From NCBI RefSeq assembly GCF_056746865.1, contig NZ_CM163382.1: a stretch of 64,000 bases of DNA, one strand, 5' to 3'. Of the stretch, positions 3,361 through 31,246 are shown piece by piece. Numbering within the stretch: position 1 is the first letter of the stretch; each line of letters opens with the position of its first letter. Below the pieces are notes generated by a model, which was not told where the DNA came from, made no database searches, and saw nothing but the letters and a program-made list of their open reading frames with translations. The position numbers and the translations under genes were made by a program.

Positions 3361-3497
3361 TAATTCTGATTCCTCAACTTATTCGCCAGCCTTCAAAGGG
3401 GCAATATTGCCGGAGATACTACATTATCTGCCGCGTCGAGTCACAGGAGATCAGCGTGAATAGCGCCGCCGGACGTGCTCCGACGGCGATAAAGGCA

Positions 3498-5105
3498 TCA
3501 ATGTGCCTTGATATACAACTCTTTGCTGTAGACATAATCCTGGGGATTATGCAGCGGAAAACCGCCAACGTAGGGTTTAAGCAGTTTGATTAACGGCTGA
3601 TAGTAGATAGGAATCAGCGGTGCCTGTTGGTTGATGATCACTTCTGCCTGCTGATACAACGCATTACGCTTTGTCGCATCAGTGATCTGCGTGGCCTGGT
3701 TTAGTAAGGCGTCATACTGCGCATTTTTCCAGTGACCGACGTTTTCTTCACTATCGCTTTTGAGCGTGTTCAGGAAGCTGGAAGCATCATTGTACGTCGC
3801 ATCCCACGACTGCCGAGACAGCATGAAATCACCGGCTCGTCGGGCATCAAGATAGGTTTTCCACTCCATTGTGCGCAGCGTCACCTGTGCACCCAGCCAT
3901 TTTTTCCATTCGGAAGACAACGCTATCGCGGTCTTTTCATGCAGATCGTACTTGTTGTAGAACAGCTCAAAGCGTAGCGGATGAGAGGCGTCGTATCCCG
4001 CCTGTTTCAGCAAGGCTTTTGCCATCGCGACGCGCTCACTCATTGGCTTTTGCAGTTCATCGAACGTCGTCGCGCTAAAGCCTTTTACCTCTGGCGGCGT
4101 CAGCGTGGTTGCGGGCGTTCTCAACCCCAGTACCTTTTGCGCAATAAGCTGTCGATCAACCGTAAGATATAGCGCCCGACGCACTCGCACATCGTTAAAT
4201 GGCGGTTTCTCAAGGTTGAAGTTGTAATATTCGCTGTTCAGACGCGGAATAATTCGTAGCTCGCCAGGCAGTGATTTTTCAATGGCGGGAATTTGCTGCG
4301 CCGGAACCCAGGTGAGATCGACCTCTCCCGCGCGATAGCGGTTATAGCCGGTGACCGAATTATCTAGCGCCAGATACTCAACCTGTTGCAATACTGTATG
4401 TTGCGCATCGCGGTACTTTGGATTTTTGCGTGCAGTAATCTTTTCGTTAACTACCCACTGATCAAGCACAAAGGCACCGTTGTAAACCATGTTCTCTGGC
4501 TTACTCCAGCTATCGCCATGTTTAGCGATGACATGATGAGGAACCGGGAACAGCGTCGGCCAGGCGAGCATCGTCGTGAACCAAGGAACCGGCTGCTCAA
4601 GCGTAACTTCAAGAGTACGATCATCCGTCGCTTTGACACCCAGCGATGTAACATCTGCTTTACCCGCAACAATAGCTGCGGCATTGTTAATGTGCGCCTG
4701 TGCCAGATAGCCAGCAAAAGGGCTTGCCGTTTTCGGGTCAACCGCGCGCTGCCAGCCGAGGACAAAATCCTCTGCCGTCAGAGGCTGACCGTCGGACCAC
4801 TGCAAACCGCTACGCAGATGGAAAATATAGCGCTTGCCGCCGTCCAGTATCTCCCAGCGTTCAGCCTGAGCGGGCTGCACCTGGCCTTCACCGTCCATCC
4901 ATACCAGACCTTCAAACAGATCCAGCACAATCTGCGCGGCAGTATTCTCCTCCACCTTTTGCGGGTCGAGCGTACCTGGGTCGCTATGATTGTTGTAACG
5001 AAAGACTTGTTGCGGGGCGAGCGGTGTGTTGGCGGGAACGTCAGCAGCGTAGAGAGGAGCCGCACTTACCAGGCTGACCAGCCATAATAAATTTCGCGTA
5101 TACAT
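3498..5105 (-). CDS. ygiS: Periplasmic solute-binding protein (ABC transporter family 5, oligopeptide-binding like)
   Basis: ORF 3498..5168 trimmed to internal Met preceding signal peptide MYTRNLLWLVSLVSAAPLYA; 535 aa like YgiS. Confidence 0.8.
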   Translation of the reverse strand: MYTRNLLWLVSLVSAAPLYAADVPANTPLAPQQVFRYNNHSDPGTLDPQKVEENTAAQIVLDLFEGLVWMDGEGQVQPAQAERWEILDGGKRYIFHLRSGLQWSDGQPLTAEDFVLGWQRAVDPKTASPFAGYLAQAHINNAAAIVAGKADVTSLGVKATDDRTLEVTLEQPVPWFTTMLAWPTLFPVPHHVIAKHGDSWSKPENMVYNGAFVLDQWVVNEKITARKNPKYRDAQHTVLQQVEYLALDNSVTGYNRYRAGEVDLTWVPAQQIPAIEKSLPGELRIIPRLNSEYYNFNLEKPPFNDVRVRRALYLTVDRQLIAQKVLGLRTPATTLTPPEVKGFSATTFDELQKPMSERVAMAKALLKQAGYDASHPLRFELFYNKYDLHEKTAIALSSEWKKWLGAQVTLRTMEWKTYLDARRAGDFMLSRQSWDATYNDASSFLNTLKSDSEENVGHWKNAQYDALLNQATQITDATKRNALYQQAEVIINQQAPLIPIYYQPLIKLLKPYVGGFPLHNPQDYVYSKELYIKAH

Positions 5106-5237
5106 GGTATTCCTTACCGGAGAAATTATAAGCCCAACAACAATACGCCTGTGGCATTGTTCGCTCAAACTTATCGCGAGTGATTTGGCTCACACTCCGG
5201 TAAAGAAAAAAGCGAGTTGCCCCCGCTTTTCCATTAA

Positions 5238-5633
5238 TTAACGGATTTCATTCAATAGTTCTGGATGCTTATCCAGAACACGTAAAAGTTTGATTGTGGA
5301 AGGATGAGGTTGGGCATTGCCTTTTTCGTAACGCGAAAACGCATTTACACCTCCCCCAAAAATTTCGCTTGCCTCTTTTTGGGTAAGAGAGAGCTTTTTT
5401 CGAACCTTCACTATAAATTCAGGTGCCACTGTTTCGGCATTCACCGAAGCCCGAAATGCCTTTACTTGCGCCATGAAAGCATCTGACTCTTCTTTATTCA
5501 TGATGCTCTCTTCGCAATGGACACAATATAAACCGTGGATACCTTTCAATACTGTTTTTCGTCCACGGAAGGTGTATGGAATATCTTTAATGCCAGAAAC
5601 CATTTCTCCCTGGTGGCAAACCGGACATTTCAT
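5238..5633 (-). CDS. mqsA: MqsA antitoxin (HTH-Xre, zinc-binding N-terminal domain)
   Basis: 131 aa; MKCPVCHQGEM...CVHCEE zinc motif plus C-terminal HTH; 1 bp downstream of mqsR. Confidence 0.9.
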   Translation of the reverse strand: MKCPVCHQGEMVSGIKDIPYTFRGRKTVLKGIHGLYCVHCEESIMNKEESDAFMAQVKAFRASVNAETVAPEFIVKVRKKLSLTQKEASEIFGGGVNAFSRYEKGNAQPHPSTIKLLRVLDKHPELLNEIR

Positions 5634-5634
5634 A

Positions 5635-5931
5635 TTACTTCTCCTTAAACGAGACGATCAGTACGTCATGAATTACCGTAATTTTAAGATAAACCTGGCC
5701 TGTAACAAGCCTGGGTCTGTAAACATCCTGCCAGATAGTATGATCAGAGTAGGTGGTCATGCTTTTATAAAAGTCGCTCTCTGATAATCCAATGATAACA
5801 TTACACATACCATCAAAATCCAAACCTAACTCATCTGCATTTAACAGGGCACTACGTGTTGTACGAACTTGCCCGGCATTGACAAGTTTTTTAACCTGAC
5901 TCAAACGTGTATGTGGTGTGCGTTTTTCCAT
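5635..5931 (-). CDS. mqsR: MqsR mRNA interferase toxin
   Basis: 98 aa; MEKRTPHTRLSQVKKLVNAGQVRTT matches MqsR; toxin-first operon with mqsA. Confidence 0.9.
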   Translation of the reverse strand: MEKRTPHTRLSQVKKLVNAGQVRTTRSALLNADELGLDFDGMCNVIIGLSESDFYKSMTTYSDHTIWQDVYRPRLVTGQVYLKITVIHDVLIVSFKEK

Positions 5932-5961
5932 AACCCCCGCCTCCCTGTTACTTTAGTTATA

Positions 5962-6004
5962 ACCTAAAAGGTTAATTACAGCAATGAAAAAGCACCTAAA
6001 AGGT
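5962..6004. promoter_or_regulatory. Two MqsA operator palindromes (ACCT-AAA-AGGT) upstream of mqsR
   Basis: Sequence AACCTAAAAGGTT at 5961-5973 and ACCTAAAAGGT at 5994-6004, 30-70 bp upstream of mqsR start; matches known MqsA binding palindrome. Confidence 0.7.
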
Positions 6005-6135
6005 TAGTTAGATGTACGGAGATAGTGACCACACAAAACGTATTCTTTAAGGAAAGTGATTGACCATATAAGAAAGTGGCGCATTAGTAGCGCCAGTTTG
6101 AAGCAGGAATTTATAAGGGAAGCTGGAGTCAGGCA

Positions 6136-6618
6136 TCACGCCAACGGCACATAAACATCCGTTTCCAGTCGCTGCTCTGTCACCCCTTCGGCAAGATTGG
6201 TGTAGTGAAACAGAATCGGTGCTTTACGCATTTTCTCGCCGCTTGCAGGCAGCCAGTGGCGAATGATGCCCCATACCGTGTGTGAAATATCGTCCAGCTC
6301 GCCAACGTGGCGGGCCACGGCATAACGTCCACCGGTAAGTTCACCATTGCTCACACCATAACGATTATCGGGAATCGGTTCGCTAACGCTGCCGCAGATA
6401 TCAAAGCGAAACGCTTCCGGTGCGGTGGTGGCAGGGTCGTCCCAGGCGACGCCAAAAGTCTGGCTTTGGTTAACAGGAGAAAGCCCCGTCTCTTTACGCC
6501 ACATGATAAATTTCGCCACGCTGTAGTTGAGCAATTCAGGGCTACAGCGGTGCGGCAACATCGCCACAGGTATTGATGGGAAATCGATAATGTTTACATC
6601 CAGTGTCAGGTTTGTCAT
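6136..6618 (-). CDS. ygiV: GyrI-like/AraC effector-domain transcriptional regulator
   Basis: 160 aa ORF, matches YgiV length and N-terminus MTNLTLDVNIIDFPSIPVAML. Confidence 0.8.
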   Translation of the reverse strand: MTNLTLDVNIIDFPSIPVAMLPHRCSPELLNYSVAKFIMWRKETGLSPVNQSQTFGVAWDDPATTAPEAFRFDICGSVSEPIPDNRYGVSNGELTGGRYAVARHVGELDDISHTVWGIIRHWLPASGEKMRKAPILFHYTNLAEGVTEQRLETDVYVPLA

Positions 6619-6670
6619 TTTGCCTCCCTGCGAAATTATTCCCGGGAACGCGTCCCGGGAGCGGTAACAA

Positions 6671-7063
6671 TTACGGATTTACTTTGCGGATCTGTTTGAC
6701 GTCAATTTCAACAGAATTCCAGTCTTTATCGACTTCACCCTGAATCTCAACCGTATCTTTCGGCGTCACCGTCACGCCGTTCCAGCGTTTGTGGTCGATA
6801 TCAACATTGATAGTACCGCTGGCATCTTTGAACACGTAGAGATCGTCAGAGATGCGTTCAACGATATTGCCGCGCAGGGTTACCCAGGTGTCGTCACGCA
6901 GGGATTTTGCGCTTTCTACAGTCGTTACGCTGCCGTTCGGCCCCTGGAATCCTCCGGCCTGACTTTGCGTTGCCGATGGGCCAGAAAAACCGCCCTGCTC
7001 TGCTGCCATCACCGGTGCGCTGCACAGGGCCATTACTGCGATTACTGCTGCGAATTTTTTCAT
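6671..7063 (-). CDS. ygiW: BOF/YgiW family periplasmic OB-fold stress protein
   Basis: ORF trimmed to MKKFAAVIAVMALCSAPVMA signal peptide; 130 aa; divergent from qseBC. Confidence 0.8.
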   Translation of the reverse strand: MKKFAAVIAVMALCSAPVMAAEQGGFSGPSATQSQAGGFQGPNGSVTTVESAKSLRDDTWVTLRGNIVERISDDLYVFKDASGTINVDIDHKRWNGVTVTPKDTVEIQGEVDKDWNSVEIDVKQIRKVNP

Positions 7064-7214
7064 GTTTATTACTCCCTTTAATGTCTGTTTCCGAGCATTT
7101 AACAAGATAGTCCTTAACAACTTCTTAAGGGAAAAAAATAAAATTTAGTGCTGTACAGAGCGCGTTACAACACGGTTTACTGGCAGCAAATACGGTTATC
7201 GCAGGGATGAAAAA

Positions 7215-7874
7215 ATGCGAATTTTACTGATAGAAGATGACATGCTGATTGGCGACGGCATCAAAACGGGCCTTAGTAAAATGGGTTTTAGCGTCGACTG
7301 GTTTACACAAGGTCGTCAGGGAAAAGAGGCGCTTTATAGCGCACCTTATGATGCGGTGATCCTGGATTTAACCTTACCAGGCATGGATGGTCGCGATATT
7401 TTGCGCGAATGGCGAGAAAAAGGTCAGCGTGAGCCGGTACTGATCCTGACCGCGCGCGATGCGCTGGCGGAACGTGTAGAAGGGCTGCGTCTGGGAGCTG
7501 ACGATTATCTGTGTAAACCTTTTGCGTTGATAGAAGTCGCCGCCAGGCTGGAAGCTCTGATGCGCCGAACCAACGGCCAGGCCAGCAACGAGCTGCGCCA
7601 CGGTAACGTCATGCTCGACCCCGGCAAACGTATCGCCACGCTGGCTGGCGAACCCTTAACACTGAAACCAAAAGAATTTGCCCTGCTGGAATTACTGATG
7701 CGTAACGCTGGTCGGGTACTGCCGCGCAAACTGATTGAAGAGAAACTGTATACCTGGGACGAAGAGGTCACCAGTAATGCCGTTGAAGTGCATGTGCATC
7801 ATCTGCGACGCAAACTCGGTAGTGATTTTATTCGTACCGTGCATGGTATTGGTTACACATTAGGTGAGAAATGA
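7215..7874 (+). CDS. qseB: Two-component response regulator QseB (OmpR family)
   Basis: 219 aa; receiver domain [16 protein letters not shown] and winged-helix C-terminus; overlaps qseC by 4 nt. Confidence 0.9.
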
Positions 7875-9220
7875 AATTTACCCAACGTCTTAGTCTGCGC
7901 GTCAGGCTGACGCTAATCTTTTTAATTCTGGCCTCGGTGACCTGGCTGCTTTCCAGCTTTGTCGCCTGGAAACAAACAACGGATAACGTCGATGAATTGT
8001 TCGACACCCAACTGATGCTGTTTGCCAAGCGGTTAAGTACGCTCGATCTCAACGAAATCAACGCGGCGGATCGCATGGCACAGACGCCAAATAGATTAAA
8101 ACACGGTCATGTTGATGACGATGCGCTGACCTTTGCCATCTTTACCCACGACGGCAGAATGGTCCTTAATGATGGCGATAACGGAGAAGATATTCCCTAT
8201 AGCTATCAACGGGAAGGTTTTGCTGACGGGCAACTGGTCGGTGAAGACGATCCTTGGCGTTTTGTCTGGATGACCTCACCTGATGGCAAATATCGCATCG
8301 TTGTTGGCCAGGAATGGGAATACCGTGAAGACATGGCGCTGGCGATTGTTGCCGGGCAATTGATCCCGTGGCTGGTCGCACTGCCGATTATGTTAATCAT
8401 CATGATGGTACTACTGGGTCGTGAACTCGCGCCGCTGAACAAACTGGCGCTGGCACTACGTATGCGTGACCCTGACTCGGAAAAACCACTAAACGCGACT
8501 GGCGTACCCAGCGAAGTGCGGCCACTGGTTGAGTCGCTAAATCAACTGTTCGCCCGCACACATGCGATGATGGTTCGTGAACGACGCTTTACCTCCGACG
8601 CAGCTCACGAACTTCGTAGCCCGTTAACGGCGCTGAAAGTGCAAACCGAAGTTGCGCAGCTCTCTGACGATGATCCGCAGGCGCGGAAAAAAGCACTGCT
8701 CCAATTACATTCCGGGATCGATCGCGCTACTCGTCTGGTTGATCAACTGCTCACGCTATCGCGGCTGGACTCACTGGATAACCTTCAGGACGTCGCGGAG
8801 ATCCCGCTTGAAGATCTCCTGCAATCGTCGGTGATGGATATTTACCACACGGCGCAGCAGGCGAAAATTGACGTGCGACTGACACTCAATGCCCACAGCA
8901 TCAAACGCACCGGGCAACCGCTATTGCTAAGTTTGTTGGTGCGAAATTTGCTGGATAACGCCGTGCGCTACAGTCCACAGGGCAGCGTGGTAGACGTCAC
9001 GCTGAATGCTGATAATTTCATCGTGAGGGATAACGGCCCCGGTGTGACACCAGAGGCACTGGCGCGAATTGGCGAACGCTTCTATCGCCCACCCGGACAA
9101 ACCGCTACCGGCAGCGGGCTTGGGCTATCGATTGTCCAGCGAATCGCCAAATTGCATGGCATGAATGTTGAATTTGGGAATGCGGAACAAGGTGGATTTG
9201 AGGCGAAGGTAAGCTGGTAA
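7871..9220 (+). CDS. qseC: Sensor histidine kinase QseC
   Basis: 449 aa; two TM segments, H-box [10 protein letters not shown], ATPase domain. Confidence 0.9.
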
Positions 9221-9227
9221 CTTCTCT

Positions 9228-9264
9228 GTCTATGAGAGCCGTTAAAACGACTCTCATAGATTTT
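9228..9264. terminator. Bidirectional stem-loop between convergent qseC and ygiZ
   Basis: Inverted repeat TCTATGAGAG...CTCTCATAGA followed by TTTTACT. Confidence 0.55.
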
Positions 9265-9265
9265 A

Positions 9266-9598
9266 CTAATAGCAAAATATAAACCGTCCCCAAAAAAGCC
9301 ACCAACCACAAACCAGACAAATACCGAGCGAGAATACATATACCCAAAACTCGAACATTTCCCGCATAAAGAGTTTTCTTAAGATAAGAATAATAAGTGG
9401 CGTAAGAAGAAAAAATGCTGCAATCATTGCTTGCAATATACGATCTTCGCCTGAAACGGAAGGTATACTGCAAATATTTCCTCCCGACTCAAGCATCCAG
9501 TCATACTTATTGAAAGCAAAAAAAGAATCTATTAACCAATAAGTAAGCATTATATATAGCAATGCTTCAAATATTGTTTTAATTTTCTGCTTTAACAT
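9266..9598 (-). CDS. ygiZ: Small inner membrane protein YgiZ
   Basis: 110 aa hydrophobic ORF MLKQKIKTIFEALLYIMLTYWLIDSFF; position between qseC and mdaB as in E. coli. Confidence 0.7.
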   Translation of the reverse strand: MLKQKIKTIFEALLYIMLTYWLIDSFFAFNKYDWMLESGGNICSIPSVSGEDRILQAMIAAFFLLTPLIILILRKLFMREMFEFWVYVFSLGICLVCGWWLFWGRFIFCY

Positions 9599-9925
9599 AT
9601 ATCAGTACGCTCATAAAAATCCATTTATAATTATCAACATGACACGTTGATACTTTCATCTTTTACTTATTCAAAGCCATATTTTCAATCCCCAAAAAAA
9701 CCGAACCAAACGTGTAAATTATTCCGGTGCGAGTAAGAATTGTAAGAATTATGAGGAATGGCTATCAGTATTGTCATTTTCAGAAAATATTTATCCTGCA
9801 TCGGTGAGTCAGAGTAAGATCAGACTTTTGCTAAATTCGCAAAAGACTTTGCACATTTTGCTAATTTCACCGTACCGCTCTGTGACGTACTATAGTCGGC
9901 AAACGTCTCACCTTGAGGTTAAAAA

Positions 9926-19461: not shown

Positions 19462-21258
19462 ATGTTTGATAAATATAGAAAAACTCTGGTAGCCGGAGCT
19501 GTGGCGATAACTCTGGGTTTGTCAGCACCGGGGGTGATGGCAGCAGGTTTTAAACCCGCACCACCTGCCGGGCAACTGGGTGCAGTCATTGTCGATCCCT
19601 ACGGCAATGCACCACTGACCGCTTTGGTTGACTTAGATAGCCATGTCATTTCTGATGTCAAAGTTACCGTCCATGGGAAGGGCGAAAAAGGCGTAGAAAT
19701 CAGCTATCCCGTGGGTCAGGAATCACTAAAAACTTATGATGGTGTACCGATTTTTGGTCTTTATCAGAAATTTGCTAACAAAGTGACCGTTGAGTGGAAA
19801 GAAAACGGCAAGGTCATGAAAGATGATTATGTGGTGCACACTTCGGCCATCGTCAATAATTACATGGATAACCGCTCTATCTCCGATTTACAACAGACCA
19901 AAGTTATTAAAGTCGCACCGGGTTTTGAAGATCGCCTCTATCTGGTTAATACCCACACCTTTACCGCCCAAGGTTCCGATCTCCACTGGCATGGTGAGAA
20001 AGATAAAAATGCCGGTATCCTTGATGCGGGTCCGGCAACCGGCGCACTACCTTTTGATATCGCGCCCTTTACTTTCATTGTCGATACCGAAGGTGAATAC
20101 CGCTGGTGGCTGGATCAAGACACTTTCTACGATGGTCGTGACCGCGATATCAACAAGCGTGGTTATCTGATGGGTATCCGCGAAACACCACGCGGCACCT
20201 TTACCGCTGTACAAGGTCAGCACTGGTACGAGTTCGACATGATGGGGCAGGTGCTCGAAGATCACAAACTACCGCGCGGATTTGCTGACGCCACTCATGA
20301 GTCCATTGAGACGCCTAATGGCACAGTATTGTTGCGCGTAGGTAAGAGCAATTACCGTCGCGATGACGGCGTACACGTCACCACCATTCGTGACCATATC
20401 CTCGAAGTCGATAAATCTGGTCGCGTTGTCGATGTATGGGATCTGACCAAGATCCTCGATCCGAAACGCGATGCACTGCTCGGCGCGCTGGATGCAGGTG
20501 CAGTTTGCGTTAACGTTGACCTTGCCCATGCAGGACAACAGGCAAAACTGGAACCGGATACACCGTTCGGCGACGCGCTGGGTGTAGGGCCAGGTCGTAA
20601 CTGGGCGCACGTTAACTCAATCGCCTATGACGCAAAAGATGACTCAATCATCCTCTCCTCTCGCCACCAGGGTGTTGTGAAAATTGGTCGTGATAAGCAA
20701 GTGAAATGGATCCTTGCGCCCTCTAAAGGTTGGGAAAAACCGCTGGCCAGCAAGCTGCTGAAACCGGTTGATGCTAACGGTAAGCCAATTACCTGTAACG
20801 AAAATGGCCTGTGCGAAAACTCAGACTTCGACTTTACCTACACCCAGCATACCGCCTGGATTTCCAGCAAAGGAACGCTCACCATTTTTGATAATGGCGA
20901 TGGGCGTCATCTGGAACAACCTGCCTTACCAACCATGAAATACTCCCGCTTTGTGGAATATAAGATTGATGAGAAGAAAGGCACCGTTCAGCAAGTGTGG
21001 GAATACGGTAAAGAACGTGGCTACGATTTCTATAGCCCGATTACCTCCATCATTGAATATCAAGCCGACCGTAACACCATGTTTGGCTTCGGTGGTTCTA
21101 TTCATTTGTTCGATGTCGGGCAGCCAACCGTCGGTAAGTTGAACGAAATCGATTACAAAACCAAAGAAGTGAAAGTGGAAATCGACGTGCTGTCAGATAA
21201 ACCCAATCAGACTCACTATCGTGCACTGTTAGTCCGTCCACAACAGATGTTCAAATAA
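19462..21258 (+). CDS. assT: Arylsulfate sulfotransferase (periplasmic, signal peptide)
   Basis: 598 aa; signal peptide MFDKYRKTLVAGAVAITLGLSAPGVMA; family recognised from translation; followed by dedicated DsbL/DsbI genes. Confidence 0.85.
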   Translation: MFDKYRKTLVAGAVAITLGLSAPGVMAAGFKPAPPAGQLGAVIVDPYGNAPLTALVDLDSHVISDVKVTVHGKGEKGVEISYPVGQESLKTYDGVPIFGLYQKFANKVTVEWKENGKVMKDDYVVHTSAIVNNYMDNRSISDLQQTKVIKVAPGFEDRLYLVNTHTFTAQGSDLHWHGEKDKNAGILDAGPATGALPFDIAPFTFIVDTEGEYRWWLDQDTFYDGRDRDINKRGYLMGIRETPRGTFTAVQGQHWYEFDMMGQVLEDHKLPRGFADATHESIETPNGTVLLRVGKSNYRRDDGVHVTTIRDHILEVDKSGRVVDVWDLTKILDPKRDALLGALDAGAVCVNVDLAHAGQQAKLEPDTPFGDALGVGPGRNWAHVNSIAYDAKDDSIILSSRHQGVVKIGRDKQVKWILAPSKGWEKPLASKLLKPVDANGKPITCNENGLCENSDFDFTYTQHTAWISSKGTLTIFDNGDGRHLEQPALPTMKYSRFVEYKIDEKKGTVQQVWEYGKERGYDFYSPITSIIEYQADRNTMFGFGGSIHLFDVGQPTVGKLNEIDYKTKEVKVEIDVLSDKPNQTHYRALLVRPQQMFK

Positions 21259-21275
21259 TTAAGAAGGGAATAAAA

Positions 21276-21944
21276 ATGTCGAAATTAGGGATCTCATCAC
21301 TATTTAAAACCATACTGCTTACCGCAGCTTTGGCTGTTTCATTTACCGCTTCTGCATTTACCGAAGGCACGGATTACATGGTTCTGGAAAAACCTATTCC
21401 GAATGCCGACAAAACGCTGATTAAGGTATTTAGCTACGCCTGCCCGTTCTGTTACAAGTACGACAAAGCGGTTACCGGTCCGGTATCGGAAAAAGTGAAA
21501 GATATCGTTGCTTTTACTCCATTCCATCTGGAAACAAAAGGTGAATACGGCAAACAAGCAAGCGAAGTCTTTGCGGTCTTGATCAATAAAGATAAAGCAG
21601 CAGGTATTTCATTATTTGATGCTAACTCTCAGTTTAAGAAAGCCAAGTTTGCTTATTACGCGGCTTATCATGACAAAAAAGAACGCTGGTCTGATGGTAA
21701 AGATCCGGCTGCCTTTATCAAAACCGGACTGGACGCCGCAGGTATGAGTCAGGCCGATTTTGAAGCCGCGCTGAAAGAGCCTGCAGTTCAGGAAACGCTG
21801 GAAAAATGGAAAGCCTCTTATGAAGTTGCAAAAATCCAGGGCGTTCCGGCGTATGTCGTCAATGGTAAATACCTGATCTACACCAAGAGTATTAAATCTA
21901 TTGACTCAATGGCAGACCTTATCCGCGAGTTAGCAAGCAAATAA
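21276..21944 (+). CDS. dsbL: Periplasmic thiol:disulfide oxidoreductase DsbL (DsbA paralogue)
   Basis: 222 aa; signal peptide and CPFC active-site motif ([14 protein letters not shown]). Confidence 0.8.
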
Positions 21945-21958
21945 CAGGGAAACAGGCT

Positions 21959-22630
21959 ATGGGTATTAAGGGAATGTGGAAAGACCTTCGCACTTCACCG
22001 GTGGACACGCTGGTAAGATGGCAAGAACAACGTTTTTTGTGGTTGTTAATGGCCATTGCGATGGGCGCGTTAATTATCCTGGCGCACTCTTTCTTCCAGA
22101 TCTATCTCTACATGGCACCCTGTGAGCAATGTGTATACATTCGCTACGCCATGTTTGTGATGGTTATTGGAGGATTGGTTGCAGCGATCAACCCAAAGAA
22201 CATCATCCTAAAGCTAATTGGCTGCGTGATGGCATTTTACGGCAGCATTTTGGGACTGAAGTTTTCGCTCAAACTGAACGATATCCACCATGCAGTACAT
22301 AATCCGGATCCCGATTCACTGTTTGGCGTACAGGGTTGCTCTACCGATCCAACTTTTCCCTTTAACCTGCCGCTGGCACAGTGGGCACCAAATTGGTTCA
22401 AGCCTACCGGGGATTGTGGCTATGACGCACCAATCGTTCCTGATGGCGTCACACTGAGCAGCACGCAACAGTGGTTTGTGGAAATGTATCAGCAATCTGA
22501 AGGCTGGTATCTGCTACCACCATGGCATTTTATGAATATGGCTCAGGCTTGTATGCTGGCTTTTGGTATGTGTCTGGTGCTGCTGGTCATTATGAGTGGC
22601 GCATGGGCGCTTAAAATCATCAGAGGCTAA
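21959..22630 (+). CDS. dsbI: Membrane disulfide oxidoreductase DsbI (DsbB paralogue)
   Basis: 223 aa polytopic membrane protein with paired cysteines (CEQC) immediately downstream of dsbL. Confidence 0.8.
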
Positions 22631-22675: not shown

Positions 22676-23464
22676 TTAACCTATCTGCACCGACAGCATA
22701 CTTAAACTGCCCATTTCTATACCATCGACCGGAATGGTAATTGGCTCCTGCCCATCCCACGCACCTAAGACATACAACAACGGCAGATAGTGCTCTGGCG
22801 TTGGATTCGATAACGCGCCACCTTCATGGTCGAGATAATTCACCAGAGGATGCTGCTCTACCGGCCCTTGCCACGTCAGATTCGCTTTCACATACTCATT
22901 AAACGACATCGCCCACGGATACGGTGAACTATCACCGTGCCACTTCACCGTACGCAGGTTATGCACCACGTTACCGCTGGCGACCAACATTATTCCTTCA
23001 TCCCGCAGCGCTGCCAGTTTGCGCCCCATTTCGAAATGCCAGGCGGCAGGTTTGCTACTGTCGATACTCAACTGCACCATCGGGATATCCGCTTGCGGAT
23101 ACATCTTAATCAGCACGCCCCACGAGCCGTGGTCAAAGCCCCAGGCTTCTTTATCCAGCGTCACCGGGACCGGCGCTAACAGCTCAACCAGATGCTGTGC
23201 CAGCGCAGGCGAACCCGGAGCAGGATAATGCGTGTCGTACAGCGCCTGCGGGAAGCCACCAAAGTCATGAATCGTGGGCGGCGTCTCCATCGCGGTCACT
23301 CCTGTTCCACGGGTAAACCAGTGAGCCGAAACCACCACAATCGCTTGCGGGCGTGGCAATGTCATCCCCAACTTCTGCCAGCTGCGGGTATACAAATTAT
23401 CTTCCAGCACGTTCATCGGACTACCGTGACCTAAAAACAATGCTGGCATACGTGTTGAAGACAT
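22676..23464 (-). CDS. ygiD: 4,5-DOPA dioxygenase extradiol-like protein YgiD
   Basis: ORF 22676..23491; start taken at second Met (MSSTRMPALFLGHGSP); alternative start at 23491. Confidence 0.8.
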   Translation of the reverse strand: MSSTRMPALFLGHGSPMNVLEDNLYTRSWQKLGMTLPRPQAIVVVSAHWFTRGTGVTAMETPPTIHDFGGFPQALYDTHYPAPGSPALAQHLVELLAPVPVTLDKEAWGFDHGSWGVLIKMYPQADIPMVQLSIDSSKPAAWHFEMGRKLAALRDEGIMLVASGNVVHNLRTVKWHGDSSPYPWAMSFNEYVKANLTWQGPVEQHPLVNYLDHEGGALSNPTPEHYLPLLYVLGAWDGQEPITIPVDGIEMGSLSMLSVQIG

Positions 23465-23606
23465 GATGATATCCTTAACTAAAGGTGTCATTTTGATATC
23501 CTCACAATACGCTTGTTCGGCGGAGTAAGAACCCGGATAACAATGATGATGATCATCAGTTATTTTGACGATCTGCCTGAAGGTGAAGATTTATAAGGAG
23601 TTGTCG

Positions 23607-24380
23607 ATGTCAGTACCTCTCATTCTGACCATACTGGCGGGGGCAGCCACGTTTATTGGCGCGTTTCTCGGCGTTCTCGGGCAAAAACCCTCGAACCGCT
23701 TACTGGCGTTTTCGCTAGGATTTGCGGCGGGGATCATGTTGCTCATCTCATTAATGGAAATGCTTCCTGCCGCACTAGCAGCTGAAGGAATGTCGCCTGT
23801 GTTGGGTTATGGAATGTTTATCTTCGGTCTGCTTGGCTATTTTGGCCTGGACCGCATGTTGCCACATGCGCATCCGCAGGATTTAATGCAAAAATCGGTG
23901 CAGCCGTTGCCAAAATCGATCAAGCGCACAGCCATTCTGCTCACTCTCGGCATCAGTCTGCATAACTTCCCGGAAGGGATTGCCACCTTTGTCACTGCGA
24001 GCAGCAACCTGGAGCTGGGCTTTGGCATCGCACTGGCCGTTGCGTTACACAATATTCCTGAAGGTCTGGCGGTTGCAGGCCCGGTTTACGCGGCAACGGG
24101 GTCTAAACGCACCGCGATTCTGTGGGCGGGGATTTCTGGACTGGCAGAAATTCTTGGTGGTGTGCTGGCGTGGTTAATCCTCGGTAGCATGATTTCCCCG
24201 GTGGTCATGGCGGCAATCATGGCGGCGGTTGCAGGAATTATGGTGGCGCTCTCGGTTGATGAATTAATGCCGCTCGCCAAAGAGATTGACCCTAATAATA
24301 ACCCCAGCTATGGCGTACTATGTGGAATGTCAGTGATGGGATTCAGTTTAGTGCTGCTACAAACGGCGGGAATTGGTTAA
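23607..24380 (+). CDS. zupT: Zinc transporter ZupT (ZIP family)
   Basis: ORF trimmed to [18 protein letters not shown] with upstream TAAGGAG RBS; 257 aa. Confidence 0.9.
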
Positions 24381-24389
24381 AAACAACAT

Positions 24390-24420
24390 CAGAAGTTGTC
24401 CAGCGCATGGACAACTTCTG
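24390..24420. terminator. Stem-loop between convergent zupT and small membrane ORF
   Basis: Inverted repeat CAGAAGTTGTCCA-GCGCA-TGGACAACTTCTG. Confidence 0.5.
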
Positions 24421-24437
24421 CCAGCTTCACGAAAGCC

Positions 24438-24608
24438 TTATTCTACCTTTTCGGCTGTCTCTTCTCTCGTACTGTTTAAGTATTTGTTCCGCGCTTCAAG
24501 CAGTGCGTCTCTGTCCTGGCGAAACGCCCGACAATAACGTTTCAAATGCAGGAAATAACCCACCACAACCAGAGCAATCAATACAATCCAGTACCAGGCG
24601 ATAAACAT
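24438..24608 (-). CDS. Small single-TM membrane protein (56 aa)
   Basis: ATG at 24608 preceded by AAGGGTAAAAGG RBS; MFIAWYWIVLIALVVVGYFL hydrophobic helix then charged tail; track ORF begins at an upstream TTG. Confidence 0.45.
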   Translation of the reverse strand: MFIAWYWIVLIALVVVGYFLHLKRYCRAFRQDRDALLEARNKYLNSTREETAEKVE

Positions 24609-24869
24609 CCTTTTACCCTTAATATTTAACAATACTAAACATTTAGCGCATAAATTTCACATATCCTTTTTCGGATATATTCATATGGTCGCATAATAAC
24701 GGAACAATTATATGATTTTGATCATAATGAAAAAGAATGCCTGATATTAATGAAATTTTCTCATAGAAAGAGAAGCGGAATTAACATCTTGCATAGCAGG
24801 GAAAAATAAAAACCGAAGCCTGCTACAACTTCGGTTTCTTGATTAAGGCAGTAAATTAAGCAGCGGTTT

Positions 24870-25523
24870 TCAGCTGGCTTTACGCTCATGTGCCTGACGA
24901 TAAGCCACCAGGTCTTCAATAGTCACGAGCGCCATATTGTGTTTATTGGCAAACTCAATGCACTCTGGTGCACGCGCCATCGTGCCATCGTCATTAGTCA
25001 GCTCACACAGCACACCAGCCGGTTTAAAGCCTGCCAGCGTCATCAGATCAATAGTCGCTTCAGTATGGCCGCCACGCGTCAGTACACCACCAGCCTGAGC
25101 GCGAAGTGGGAAAACGTGGCCCGGGCGATTCAGATCAGAAGGTTTTGCGTCATCGGCAATCGCTGCGCGAACGGTCGTAATACGGTCAGCGGCAGAAACA
25201 CCGGTAGTCACACCTTCAGCCGCTTCAATGGTCACGGTAAAACCGGTGCCATAGGCGCTGGTGTTATTTTCTACCATCATTGGCAGATCAAGTTGTTTAC
25301 GGCGATCTTCAGTAATGCACAGGCAAACAATACCGCTACCGTGGCGAATGGTCAGCGCCATCTGCTCAACGGTCATGGTTTCTGCCGGGAAGATCATATC
25401 GCCTTCGTTTTCACGGTCTTCATCATCAAGCACCATTACACCGCGTCCTTCACGCAGCGCAGCCAGTGCATTTTCAACACGTTCGAAAGGCGTACCAAAA
25501 GAGGAAAGTAGCGTCTGATTCAT
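24870..25523 (-). CDS. ribB: 3,4-dihydroxy-2-butanone 4-phosphate synthase
   Basis: 217 aa; [45 protein letters not shown]. Confidence 0.95.
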
Positions 25524-25569
25524 GGTAAAAAAACCTCACTAAAATTATGGTTACCAGAATCAGGGCAGT

Positions 25570-25790
25570 CTTAGGAGTGGCGGCATATAGCCAAAATAAC
25601 GTGAGCGGGTCCATGCCCGACAGAATCGTTACTCTCTCCCATCCGGACTCTAACCGTCGGCCCCGGAATTACACCGGATCTGCTGTCCTTTGAGTTCGCA
25701 CCCAAAGCGCTCGCGGGCTTTCAACTGAGTTGATTTACCGCCGGTGGGGAATTTCGCCCCGCCCTGAGAATAAGCGGATTCACTATAACG
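25570..25790 (-). ncRNA. sroG: FMN riboswitch (RFN element, sroG) in ribB 5' leader
   Basis: Minus-strand sequence contains conserved aptamer blocks CAGATCCGGTGTAATTCCGGGGCCGACGGTTAGAGTCCGGATGGGAGAGAGTAACG upstream of ribB. Confidence 0.8.
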
Positions 25791-25896
25791 CTAATGATTA
25801 GCGCCAGCAACGCATAGCTTCACATAATTCTGGTTTATGACTTACCCTTATCGCACTACAATGGCACTCAACACCTATCAGTACAGGGAAACTACA

Positions 25897-26196
25897 ATGA
25901 TTGACCCGAAAAAAATTGAGCAAATCGCTCGCCAGGTTCACGAATCAATGCCTAAAGGAATCAGGGAGTTCGGGGAAGATGTGGAGAAAAAAATCCGCCA
26001 AACCCTACAAGCGCAACTGACGCGTCTCGATCTGGTGAGCCGCGAAGAATTCGACGTACAGACGCAAGTCCTGTTACGGACTCGTGAGAAACTGGCATTA
26101 CTGGAGCAGCGCATCAGTGAACTGGAAGCGCGCAATAATTCGGTAGCAGATCTTCAATCTCCTCCGGCTATCCCGCCTATTGATAAAGCAGAATAA
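25897..26196 (+). CDS. ubiK: Ubiquinone biosynthesis accessory factor UbiK (YqiC)
   Basis: ORF trimmed to [21 protein letters not shown]; coiled-coil small protein. Confidence 0.85.
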
Positions 26197-26204
26197 AGCA
26201 ACAC

Positions 26205-26226
26205 AAAAACGGGCCAGACGGCCCGT
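26205..26226. terminator. Stem-loop between convergent ubiK and glgS
   Basis: CGGGCC-AGAC-GGCCCG flanked by A5 / T-rich on minus strand. Confidence 0.5.
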
Positions 26227-26230
26227 AATA

Positions 26231-26431
26231 TCAGTGTTCTAATTCAAGTTCTCTGGTTTGCATCATCTGTTGGCAATACCAGGCATAACGTGCGCAAAAC
26301 CAGGTTCTATGTTCTTCATCCATGTTACCAGTAACGGCCAGAATATCGACCGGGCGACCTTCTGCGTGCATTCTGGCAAAACTACGCGCCAGGAAATCGA
26401 AATTATTTAAAGAATTAAGACTATGATCCAT
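26231..26431 (-). CDS. glgS: Surface composition regulator GlgS
   Basis: 66 aa; [33 protein letters not shown]. Confidence 0.9.
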
Positions 26432-26699
26432 AAGCACATCCTCCGGTTATCGCATACCTTTTAAGGCCATATGCTTTTTCTGATTTCAGTATTCCCCAAT
26501 CAGTGTAGTGCCTTTAAACATAACGTGCGTAAATATATTGTCCCCGATCACACTTTTTAGTGAAAAATAAAAAACCATATTAAAAGACTTTCTCTTCCAG
26601 AACTTCTCTAACATGTGTTATTATTAACAAAGATAAATGTAAGCAAGGAAACTATCCTAAAGTAAATATTGCGTCACTAAATGGACATTGGAGTGACAT

Positions 26700-27329
26700 A
26701 TGATTTTATTCGCCGACTATAACACCCCTTATCTTTTCGCTATTTCCTTTGTACTGTTGATCGGCCTTTTAGAAATTTTTGCGCTTATCTGCGGTCATAT
26801 GCTCTCCGGTGCTCTTGATGCACATCTTGACCATTATGATTCCATAACCACAGGTCATATTAGCCAGGCACTTCATTATCTCAATATCGGAAGATTGCCA
26901 GCTCTCGTCGTTCTCTGCTTACTGGCTGGTTTTTTTGGTCTTATTGGCATCCTGTTGCAGCATACCTGCATCATGGTCTGGCAATCACCACTCTCGAACC
27001 TGTTCGTGGTTCCTGTCAGTTTACTGTTTACGATTATTGCGGTGCATTATACCGGTAAAATAGTTGCGCCCTGGATTCCACGCGACCATAGTTCAGCTAT
27101 TACAGAAGAAGAATATATTGGTAGCATGGCGTTAATTACCGGACATCAAGCGACTTCAGGTAATCCCTGCGAAGGAAAACTCACCGATCAATTTGGCCAA
27201 ATACATTATTTACTACTGGAGCCTGAAGAAGGAAAAATTTTCACTAAAGGAGACAAAGTGTTAATTATTTGCCGACTTTCTGCAACGCGATATTTGGCGG
27301 AAAACAATCCCTGGCCCCAAATATTGTAA
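26700..27329 (+). CDS. yqiJ: NfeD-like inner membrane protein YqiJ
   Basis: 209 aa; membrane N-terminal half plus soluble C-terminal OB-like domain; upstream of SPFH gene. Confidence 0.8.
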
Positions 27330-27355
27330 TTTATTAATCAAAAGGAAATTTAATA

Positions 27356-29017
27356 ATGGATGATATTGTTAATTCTGTGCCCTCCTGGATGTTTACCGCA
27401 ATTATTGCCGTATGCATTCTGTTTATTATTGGAATTATTTTCGCCAGGCTCTATCGTCGCGCTTCGGCAGAGCAAGCTTTTGTTCGTACTGGTTTAGGTG
27501 GGCAAAAAGTGGTAATGAGCGGTGGCGCAATCGTGATGCCGATCTTTCATGAAATAATCCCCATCAATATGAATACCCTGAAGCTGGAAGTCAGCCGCTC
27601 AACCATTGATAGCCTGATTACGAAAGATCGTATGCGCGTCGATGTCGTGGTCGCTTTCTTTGTGCGGGTAAAACCTTCAGTTGAAGGGATTGCCACCGCC
27701 GCCCAGACGCTGGGACAACGCACCCTGTCGCCTGAAGACTTACGTATGTTGGTTGAAGATAAATTTGTCGATGCCCTCCGTGCAACAGCTGCACAAATGA
27801 CCATGCATGAGTTACAGGATACCCGCGAGAACTTCGTGCAGGGAGTACAAAATACCGTAGCTGAAGATCTGTCGAAAAACGGCCTGGAACTGGAAAGCGT
27901 TTCACTTACCAACTTTAACCAGACGTCGAAAGAACATTTCAATCCTAACAACGCCTTTGACGCCGAAGGTTTAACCAAGCTGACGCAGGAGACGGAGCGC
28001 CGTCGTCGCGAACGTAACGAAGTTGAACAGGATGTAGAAGTTGCGGTGCGTGAGAAAAACCGTGATGCGCTTTCGCGCAAGCTGGAGATTGAACAACAAG
28101 AAGCGTTTATGACGCTTGAGCAGGAGCAGCAGGTTAAAACCCGTACCGCTGAGCAGAATGCGAAAATTGCGGCTTTTGAGGCCGAGCGTCGTCGGGAAGC
28201 AGAGCAGACGCGAATTCTGGCTGAACGACAGATTCAGGAAACGGAAATCGACCGCGAACAGGCCGTCCGTTCCAGAAAAGTTGAAGCTGAACGTGAAGTT
28301 CGCATTAAAGAGATCGAACAGCAGCAGGTCACCGAAATCGCCAACCAGACGAAATCGATCGCTATTGCCGCCAAATCGGAACAGCAGTCACAAGCGGAAG
28401 CGCGTGCCAACCTTGCACTTGCAGAAGCGGTAAGCGCCCAGCAAAACGTTGAAACCACTCGCCAGACCGCAGAAGCCGATCGTGCTAAACAAGTTGCCCT
28501 AATCGCTGCCGCGCAGGACGCGGAAACCAAAGCAGTCGAACTGACCGTCCGGGCGAAAGCTGAAAAAGAAGCCGCAGAGATGCAGGCGGCGGCAATCGTT
28601 GAGTTAGCCGAAGCTACGCGTAAAAAGGGTCTGGCGGAAGCAGAAGCGCAACGTGCGCTGAACGACGCTATCAACGTACTTTCTGACGAGCAAACCAGCC
28701 TTAAATTCAAACTGGCGCTATTACAATCATTACCTGCGGTAATAGAGAAATCCGTTGAGCCGATGAAGTCCATTGACGGCATCAAGATTATTCAGGTCGA
28801 TGGATTAAACCGAGGTGGCGCTGCGGGGAATGCGGCATCAGGCAGCGTTAGTGGCGGAAACCTGGCAGAACAGGCATTGTCTGCCGCCCTTTCTTACCGC
28901 ACACAGGCACCACTGATTGACTCCTTGCTCAATGAAATCGGTGTTTCTGGCGGCTCGCTGGCGGCATTGACTTCACCCTTAACATCAACAACTCCCGTCG
29001 AAGAAAAAACAGAGTAA
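27356..29017 (+). CDS. yqiK: SPFH/band-7 (flotillin-like) protein YqiK
   Basis: 553 aa; N-terminal TM, SPFH domain then long charged coiled-coil (EQ/AE/K rich). Confidence 0.85.
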   Translation: MDDIVNSVPSWMFTAIIAVCILFIIGIIFARLYRRASAEQAFVRTGLGGQKVVMSGGAIVMPIFHEIIPINMNTLKLEVSRSTIDSLITKDRMRVDVVVAFFVRVKPSVEGIATAAQTLGQRTLSPEDLRMLVEDKFVDALRATAAQMTMHELQDTRENFVQGVQNTVAEDLSKNGLELESVSLTNFNQTSKEHFNPNNAFDAEGLTKLTQETERRRRERNEVEQDVEVAVREKNRDALSRKLEIEQQEAFMTLEQEQQVKTRTAEQNAKIAAFEAERRREAEQTRILAERQIQETEIDREQAVRSRKVEAEREVRIKEIEQQQVTEIANQTKSIAIAAKSEQQSQAEARANLALAEAVSAQQNVETTRQTAEADRAKQVALIAAAQDAETKAVELTVRAKAEKEAAEMQAAAIVELAEATRKKGLAEAEAQRALNDAINVLSDEQTSLKFKLALLQSLPAVIEKSVEPMKSIDGIKIIQVDGLNRGGAAGNAASGSVSGGNLAEQALSAALSYRTQAPLIDSLLNEIGVSGGSLAALTSPLTSTTPVEEKTE

Positions 29018-29204
29018 ACCCTCTTCTATGAATAATCCCTGGCCCAAAAAGCCGGGGATTTTTTATATCTGCGTTCCGCTAAAAGGTGCAAATGATCAGG
29101 CTGTTGCAGCATTTTGCGTGACCGCTCGGGGAAGGGAAAACTGCCTCTGGGAAAGCGTTGCGCGGGGTCTGGCGCTCATCAACAATCGGGGAGTCAGCAG
29201 GGGG

Positions 29205-29350
29205 CTGAAACGGGAAAGCCCCTCCCGAAGAAGGGGCCTTATAGAAGGAAAGGGTTATGATGAAGCTCGTCATCATACTGATTGTGTTGTTACTAGTAAG
29301 TTTCCAGGCTTATTAACAACCAATTCAGAGGGGGGAGAAATCCTCCCTTA
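29205..29350 (-). ncRNA. sibD: Sib antisense RNA (antitoxin to Ibs), copy 1; boundaries approximate
   Basis: Antisense to ibs ORF; GC hairpin GCCCCT-CCCGAAGA-AGGGGC at 29217-29240 fits a minus-strand terminator; boundaries inferred. Confidence 0.5.
29257..29316 (+). CDS. ibsD: Ibs-family type I toxin (19 aa hydrophobic peptide MMKLVIILIVLLLVSFQAY)
   Basis: ATG ATG AAG CTC GTC ATC ATA CTG... TAA; matches Ibs toxin family; located between yqiK and hldE as ibsD/ibsE are in E. coli. Confidence 0.7.
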   Translation: MMKLVIILIVLLLVSFQAY

Positions 29351-29582
29351 CCCTTGTTCCTTTACTTTAGGTTGAAAAAAAATCAGCGTCAAGAAGGTTT
29401 CTCTATCCCACATCCCTGGCCCAAAAAGCCGGGGATTTTTTATATCTGCGTTCCGCTAAAAGGTGCAAATGATCAGGCTGTTGCAGCATTTTGCGTGACG
29501 GCTCGGGGAAGGCAAAACTGCATCAGGGAAAGCATTGCGCGGGGTCTGGCGCTCATCAACAATCGGGGAGTCAGCAAGGGGC

Positions 29583-29727
29583 TGAAACGGGAAAGCCCCT
29601 CCCGAAGAAGGGGCCTTGTATAAGGAAAGGGTTATGATGAAGCTGGTCATCATACTGATTGTGTTGTTACTCGTAAGTTTCGCAGCTTATTAACAGCCAA
29701 TCAGAGGGGGGAGAAATCCTCCCTCAC
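29583..29727 (-). ncRNA. sibE: Sib antisense RNA, copy 2; boundaries approximate
   Basis: Antisense to second ibs ORF; same hairpin structure as copy 1. Confidence 0.5.
29634..29693 (+). CDS. ibsE: Ibs-family type I toxin (MMKLVIILIVLLLVSFAAY)
   Basis: Second copy of 19-codon hydrophobic ORF; differs from copy 1 by Q17A. Confidence 0.7.
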   Translation: MMKLVIILIVLLLVSFAAY

Positions 29728-29812
29728 CCTTGTTCCTTTACTTTAGGTTGAAAAAAAAACAGCGTCAATAGGCCTGCCAGGTTCGAAGCGAGATCTGTGA
29801 ACCGCTTTCCGG

Positions 29813-31246
29813 TTAGCCTTTTTTATCCTGTTGGATCTTCTTGATGATGTTGGTCGTCGAGCAACCGTCTTCAAAGTTGAGCACCAACACTTCGCCACCG
29901 TTGGCCCAGACTTCTTTACTCCCGGCAATCTCTTCTGGTTTATAGTCGCCGCCTTTCACCAGCAGGTCTGGCAAGATCCCGGCGATCAGGCGCTGCGGCG
30001 TGTCTTCTTCAAACGACACCACCCAGTCGACCGCTTCCAGTGCACCCAGCACAATCATACGCTGCTCGAGAGGGTTAACGGGGCGGGAATCCCCTTTCAG
30101 CCGTTTGGTGGAAGCATCGCTGTTGACGGCGACAATCAAACGGTCACCCAGTTTACGGGCATTTGCCAGATAAGAGACGTGCCCGGCGTGCAGGATGTCA
30201 AAGACGCCATTGGTCATTACCACCTTTTCGCCGCGTTTACGCGCCGCCGCCACAGCAAGCTTCAGTTCCTCTTCGGTCATCACACCAAAGCCGGTATCTG
30301 CACGTCCACGTACTGCGTTTTCCAGCTCGATCGGCGAAACCGTGGATGTCCCCAGTTTGCCGACCACTACGCCTGCCGCCGCATTAGCAAAGAAGCAGGC
30401 TTCTTCCAGCGAATTACCCGCCGCCAGCGTTGCCGCCAGGACACCAATCACCGTGTCGCCCGCACCGGTAACGTCATACACTTCCTGCGCCTGAGTTGGC
30501 ATATGCAGCGGCGTTTTGCCCGGTTGCAGCAGCGACATACCCTGTTCGGAACGGGTCACTAACAGAGCCGAGAGTTCGTAATCGGCAATCAGTTTCATGC
30601 CGCGTTCAACAATCTCTTCTTCGGTCTTACATTTACCGACAACAGCTTCAAATTCCGAGAGATTCGGCGTTAACAGCGTAGCGCCGCGGTAGCGCTCAAA
30701 ATCGGTGCCTTTTGGATCAATCAGCACCGGAACGCCCGCTTTACGCGCCAGTTGGATCATCTGCTGCACGCTTGCCAGCGCACCTTTCGCGTAGTCAGAG
30801 AGCACCAGCGCGCCAATCGAACTCAGCGCCTGATTAATCCGCTCGTGCAGCGGCTGCGGATCAACCCCTTCGAAACCTTCTTCAAAATCCAGACGGATCA
30901 GCTGTTGGTTGCGGGAAAGTACCCGTAATTTGGTGATGGTCGGATGCGTCGGTACAGAAACGAAGTCGCATTTGACGTTGACGTCGGCCAGAGATTTACT
31001 CAGCGCGCGCGCTGCATCGTCAATGCCCGTCAACCCGACCAGGCGTGCATTAGCACCGAGAGAAGCGATATTCATCGCCACGTTAGCCGCGCCGCCCGGA
31101 CGTTCTTCGATGGTATTCACTTTAACCACGGGCACCGGCGCTTCCGGCGAGATACGACTGGTGGGGCCGTACCAGTAACGATCCAGCATCACATCACCAA
31201 CCACCATCACTCCTGCACGTTCAAACTCTGGCAGCGTTACTTTCAT
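29813..31246 (-). CDS. hldE: Bifunctional D-beta-D-heptose 7-phosphate kinase / heptose 1-phosphate adenylyltransferase
   Basis: 477 aa; ribokinase-like N-domain and cytidylyltransferase C-domain ([10 protein letters not shown]). Confidence 0.95.

Follow-up and report, generated by a model that had tools for sequence, protein, structure and literature searches.

In Escherichia coli, Yqi and Yqi-like are related, mutually exclusive fimbrial types encoded at different loci (Wurpel et al., 2013; PMC3559732). Table S2 of that paper lists Yqi-like in all A and B1 strains and in IAI39, Yqi in most B2 strains, strain 042, and E. fergusonii, and neither type in O157:H7, O55:H7, UMN026, SMS-3-5, 536, F11, and E2348/69. 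The main text ties Yqi-like to phylogroups A, B1, D, and E, whereas its own Table S2 has the type in no E strain and, among the "D" strains, only in IAI39. The Yqi operon of B2 strains (UTI89, APEC IMT5155) is ExPEC adhesin I (EA/I) (Antao et al., 2009; PMC2771359). Both types are four-gene operons of the pi clade of chaperone-usher systems and lie in the same chromosomal neighborhood, but the B2 Yqi usher is only 55-56% identical to K-12 YqiG, and its operon is located between yqiD and ribB. In K-12 MG1655, the gene order is ubiK - ygiL - yqiG (a pseudogene split by IS2) - yqiH - yqiI - glgS (b3042-b3049), and 6,608 bp separate the ubiK and glgS stop codons.

The window, which is the whole stretch of 64,000 nucleotides analyzed here, is E. 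coli DNA; the 851-bp stretch across its ubiK-glgS junction is 100% identical in many complete genomes of the species. Presumably it belongs to phylogroup D, an assignment that we base partly on one strain label (ST69). Gene annotation was transferred from strain 2017C-4173W12, a near-identical genome with the same gene coordinates and 4 mismatches in 50 kb. The order is ribB (24870-25523, minus strand), an FMN riboswitch (25627-25775, minus strand), ubiK, glgS, yqiJ, yqiK, two Sib/Ibs copies, and hldE. The open reading frame list and the sequence place ubiK and glgS in convergent orientation with the following features at their junction.

25897..26196, plus strand: ubiK (yqiC), 99 aa, with an ancestral-type C-terminal tail (open reading frame, Pfam, annotation of the near-identical genome)
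26197..26230, no strand: intergenic gap between the convergent stop codons, 34 bp (open reading frame coordinates)
26209..26226, minus strand: hairpin ACGGGCC-AGAC-GGCCCGT, 7-bp stem with 6 GC pairs and a 4-nt loop (terminator scan and folding)
26231..26431, minus strand: glgS (surface composition regulator), 66 aa (open reading frame, Pfam, annotation)

The last base of the ubiK stop codon is 26196, and the stop codon of glgS, read on the minus strand, covers 26231-26233. An earlier note on this DNA had put the two genes about 35 bp apart; the measured distance is 34 bp, and the interval it gave, 26197-26230, is exactly the intergenic region. Both gene identities have strong domain matches. 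UbiK matches PF04380 (UbiK/BMFP) over residues 1-78 (E = 1.6e-27; 96.2 bits against a gathering cut-off of 37.2), and GlgS matches PF08971 over its full length (E = 1.1e-45; 153.9 bits against a cut-off of 32.2). The 34 bp between ubiK and glgS in the window hold no fimbrial genes. The same 34-bp gap occurs in strain 118UI, O157:H7, UTI89, and one divergent Escherichia genome. Strain 118UI is identical to the window across the 851-bp junction query, and tblastn with K-12 YgiL, YqiH, and YqiI gave no match at its ubiK-glgS locus. A promoter scan detected no sigma-70-like sites in 25700-26800, so there is no hint of a hidden transcription unit in the gap. Likewise, an Rfam scan of 23000-31000 returned the FMN riboswitch and two Sib RNAs and nothing at the ubiK-glgS junction.

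The K-12 Yqi-like locus shares its flanking genes and elements with the window (ribB, FMN riboswitch, ubiK, glgS, yqiJ, yqiK, sib/ibs, and hldE), but the window lacks the 5.3-kb operon (6.6 kb with IS2). The earlier note had given a K-12 map with ygiL and yqiGHI between ubiK and glgS and had concluded that the fimbrial genes are missing from this strain. The MG1655 annotation bears out that map, and the 6,608 bp between the K-12 stop codons are far from the equally compact K-12 junction that the note had named as counterevidence; the window is without ygiL-yqiGHI, and K-12 carries the operon. Comparison by blastn and alignment placed the breaks in homology at window 26127/26128 and 26199/26200 and defined two further features.

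26128..26199, plus strand: empty site, 72 bp, consisting of the last 23 ubiK codons including the stop plus 3 bp (blastn breakpoints and alignments)
26016..26273, no strand: window stretch corresponding to the divergent tract (about 16%) of operon-bearing strains (shared differences in a three-way alignment)

The 72 bp of the empty site correspond to 6,637 bp in K-12 (positions 3072-9708 of the extracted K-12 locus, L001), or 5,301 bp without IS2. This K-12 segment contains a new ubiK tail, ygiL, yqiG::IS2, yqiH, and yqiI. The left break lies inside ubiK, and the last 22 UbiK codons are replaced in K-12. The two proteins consequently differ in their C-terminal tails and in length (96 aa in K-12 and 99 aa, with the ancestral tail, in the window), and the swap begins exactly at the end of the Pfam BMFP domain. 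Inspection by eye of the K-12 insert boundaries revealed no repeats or att-like sequences. The K-12 sequence immediately left of the hairpin weakly resembles the ubiK end of the window; the two agree at 14 of 24 positions, which is indistinguishable from chance.

Outgroup arrangements are useful for deciding which of the two states is the older. Species-representative genomes were scanned with the window UbiK, up to a limit of 600 candidate stretches and 80 loci, which yielded at least 80 loci. At every listed locus with a glgS homologue, ubiK and glgS are convergent with stop codons 28-73 bp apart. Compact junctions of this kind are present in a divergent Escherichia genome, E. albertii, eight Citrobacter loci, Salmonella arizonae, Superficieibacter, Pseudocitrobacter, Raoultella, and Klebsiella. 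The UbiK tail motif PAIPPVD is shared by the window, Citrobacter, Salmonella arizonae, Enterobacter, and Kosakonia and is absent from the K-12 tail. Fimbrial genes do not intervene between ubiK and glgS at any of the 80 outgroup loci listed. By this sample of loci, the compact junction is the ancestral state and the K-12 arrangement the derived one: the listed loci with glgS are compact, most share the hairpin stem, several share the tail motif with the window, and none has the operon at this site. Strains like that of the window keep the ancestral junction.

The presence or absence of the operon was surveyed in 5,426 complete E. coli genomes using the 851-bp junction stretch as query. The junction is in one piece in 2,062 genomes, including O157:H7 and UTI89, and is split into two places in the other 3,363 matching genomes. 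The K-12 yqiG-yqiI segment was matched in 3,362 of the 5,426, and the compact and operon-bearing classes are therefore complementary to within one genome; these class counts are totals and not a per-genome cross-tabulation on a tree, and rare secondary losses would escape them. About 38% of complete E. coli genomes thus lack the operon at ubiK-glgS, and the polymorphism that the earlier note had proposed to look for in other genomes is real. These counts agree with Table S2 of Wurpel et al. (2013; PMC3559732) and give no support for Yqi-like in phylogroup E. The operon itself falls into two E. coli allele classes, one of 1,574 records with at least 99% identity to K-12 and one of 1,711 records with 90-95%. 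Between K-12 and an O121:H19 strain (L001 and L086), identity is lowest, at 82%, in the adhesin-like gene yqiI (insert offset about 4000-4800), which suggests that the tip protein has diversified. The yqiH gene of the O121:H19 strain carries a frameshift according to its annotation.

The window likewise has an empty site where the B2-type operon is found, about 1.3 kb from that of the K-12 operon.

24609..24869, no strand: second empty site, yqiD-ribB intergenic region, 261 bp (window annotation and comparison with UTI89)

UTI89 carries the four-gene Yqi operon between yqiD and ribB, where the interval is 5.6 kb, and window 24727-24871 stands where UTI89 has 5,482 bp. B2 strains resemble the window in their compact ubiK-glgS junction, but the window has no B2 operon. 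Of the 5,426 genomes, 994 have the B2-type Yqi operon, and about 1,070 (about 20%, obtained by subtraction of totals and not by per-genome cross-tabulation) lack both operons. Among these is O157:H7 TW14359, in which, as in the window, both the yqiD-ribB and the ubiK-glgS sites are empty and the 34-bp gap is of identical sequence; the two differ at the junction only in alleles (98.5% identity over 851 bp). Lack of the K-12 operon at ubiK-glgS is a widespread polymorphism already on record, and strains without either operon are tabulated (PMC3559732, Table S2).

Yqi-family operons at zupT/yqiD-ribB also occur in several Citrobacter, Enterobacter, Lelliottia, Pseudocitrobacter, and Klebsiella species (loci L013, L018, L022, L025, L026, L028, L031-L033, L057, L076, and L078, at about 2000-6900; the UTI89 copy is at 5993-10967 of L003). 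The ushers of these operons share 40-46% identity with both E. coli types; the exception is Klebsiella spallanzanii, whose usher is 71% identical to that of UTI89. The zupT/yqiD-ribB interval appears to be an old site that has been recurrently occupied or vacated.

Base composition and local divergence are informative about the origin of the K-12 segment. Without IS2, the K-12 insert has a GC content of 40.2%, compared to about 49% in the flanks, and the spacer between ubiK and ygiL has only 23%. Identity between the window and K-12 drops beside the insert: over the last 220 nt on the ubiK side it is first 95% and then 83%, and over the first 150 nt on the glgS side it is 91%. Farther out, it is again 99-100%. 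The differences are shared: K-12 (phylogroup A) and O121:H19 (B1) have a common UbiK tail, common insert boundaries, and every substitution in common within window 26016-26273, and both are identical to the window throughout the 119 nt to the left of the tract and the 166 nt to its right. The K-12-type edge sequences are farther from E. albertii than the compact alleles are. A search for a donor by tblastn of K-12 YgiL, YqiH, and YqiI, with an IS2-free YqiG, against the 80 outgroup loci found related operons only upstream, at zupT-ribB.

The sharply bounded divergent tract common to A and B1 strains points to import by homologous recombination, and we infer a single event of this kind from the sequence comparison. 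The ygiL-yqiGHI genes would be a later gain by part of the species through a single entry, for which homologous recombination with a diverged relative is the likeliest route; that relative would already have had the operon between ubiK and glgS. Crossovers would have taken place inside ubiK, near window 26016, and inside glgS, near window 26273. The import would have brought in low-GC DNA and given UbiK its new C-terminal tail, and the imported segment may then have been inherited or spread among A- and B1-type strains, while the window lineage would never have received the operon. The full proposal is that the Yqi-like operon was imported once from an unsampled diverged relative, rewriting the last 22 ubiK codons, and that two UbiK isoforms now segregate with operon presence and absence, the window having the original one; we consider the arguments for and against this proposal to be evenly balanced. 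If it is true, exchange of the tail might have consequences for how UbiK functions or for its pairing with UbiJ.

The earlier note had left open whether the operon is absent from this strain or was never inserted. The outgroups, the UbiK tail, the low GC content of the K-12 segment, and the divergent tract favor the second wording, and we consider it highly probable that the window retains the ancestral, uninterrupted ubiK-glgS arrangement and that the K-12 operon never entered its lineage. Secondary loss would require that an ancestor had ygiL-yqiGHI and that the genes were later either deleted or exchanged through recombination for a compact allele of another lineage. Recombination is frequent in E. 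coli, and fimbrial operons often decay; in this one, yqiG is split by IS2 in K-12, IS insertions or frameshifts are found in the operon of other strains, and 94 matching genomes retain less than 80% of it. A simple deletion, however, would leave a K-12-type tail or the divergent tract, and the window has neither: its UbiK tail is of the ancestral type, and it has no substitution of the set common to K-12 and the B1 strain. The junction has no scar, its tail, spacer, and hairpin are all of the outgroup type, and its right edge is 100% identical to that of O157:H7. Replacement by an ancestral allele would look identical to never having had the operon, but it needs two events where the preferred history needs none, and we regard loss as very improbable. 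The idea that the compact junction is an assembly collapse or mis-join can be set aside as having a negligible probability; it is refuted by 2,062 complete genomes in which the 851-bp stretch is contiguous, in many cases with 100% identity to the window, and by a 24-kb stretch that is 100% identical in many independent assemblies.

A GC-rich hairpin with a U-run directly behind it on the transcribed strand is the hallmark by which intrinsic terminators are recognized. The gap hairpin folds at -14.3 kcal/mol on the plus strand (z = -4.9; none of 200 shuffled sequences folded as well) and has a folding z of -4.0 on the minus strand. On the minus strand the hairpin is followed by TTTTTGTGTTG, which makes a consensus intrinsic terminator (stem plus T-run) for glgS, and the terminator scan scores the hairpin on this strand only. 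By these features, the junction hairpin is a textbook predicted Rho-independent terminator for glgS. K-12 retains the glgS-side hairpin, with yqiI and glgS as its neighbors. The plus strand of the window has an A-run ahead of the hairpin, and the tail behind it, UAAUAUCAG, is U-poor, with 3 U in its first 8 nt. The earlier note had described a single terminator hairpin shared by the convergent genes. The structure and the presence of one hairpin hold, but the scan recognized the glgS strand only, and a role for ubiK transcripts is a probable one deduced from the arrangement. The hairpin would end glgS transcripts and probably also stops or stabilizes ubiK transcripts arriving from the opposite side.

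The single-strand call and the U-poor plus-strand tail would also fit a hairpin that acts for glgS only, with ubiK transcripts reading through antisense into glgS, so that the terminator is shared in position and not in function. We hold this to be possible but somewhat doubtful, for several features of the locus and of its relatives run against it. The A-run upstream of the stem on the plus strand is the mirror-image layout expected of a two-way terminator, and the 34-bp gap offers ubiK no other hairpin. The T-run of this hairpin is on the ubiK side in Citrobacter youngae and C. werkmanii, and both tails are T-rich in Raoultella, which suggests that the element may serve both genes family-wide. 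Outgroup junctions in Citrobacter, Salmonella arizonae, Raoultella, Klebsiella, and E. albertii resemble that of the window in having a convergent pair with one hairpin on the ACGGGCC/GGCCCGT stem. They differ from it in the loop, which is variable, and in the side with the better T-run, which changes by genus; Salmonella arizonae has an extra spacer. Superficieibacter and Pseudocitrobacter have another hairpin at the equivalent position. A stem kept with changed loops, or replaced by a different hairpin at the same place, is the pattern expected of conserved terminator function.

For annotation, the main implication is that K-12 represents the derived state at ubiK-glgS. The junction could serve as a lineage marker, and knowing its state helps when K-12 gene coordinates or UbiK protein models are carried over to other strains. 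Beyond correct annotation, the difference matters little. Replacement of the UbiK tail in K-12 and the bounded tract pointing to recombination are minor additions that may be unstated in earlier papers.

Several other polymorphisms lie near the junction. The genes assT (aryl-sulfate sulfotransferase), dsbL, and dsbI are upstream at window 19462-22630, between ygiC and ygiD. UTI89 has them at this position, whereas O157:H7 TW14359 does not, and there ygiC abuts ygiD; this is another presence/absence polymorphism. Downstream, two tandem Sib antitoxin RNAs (RF00113; 142 and 150 bits) are located at window 29242-29392 and 29619-29768 on the minus strand, each with an Ibs toxin open reading frame on the opposite strand, as at K-12 sibD/sibE. 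Strains 118UI and UTI89 have one Ibs gene annotated here, indicating that either copy number or annotation varies between strains. The 3' part of the flotillin-like gene yqiK (window about 28440-28900), which encodes the C-terminal region, is unusually variable among E. coli strains, being 79-90% identical to K-12, O157:H7, and UTI89, compared to 96-100% in the rest of the gene.
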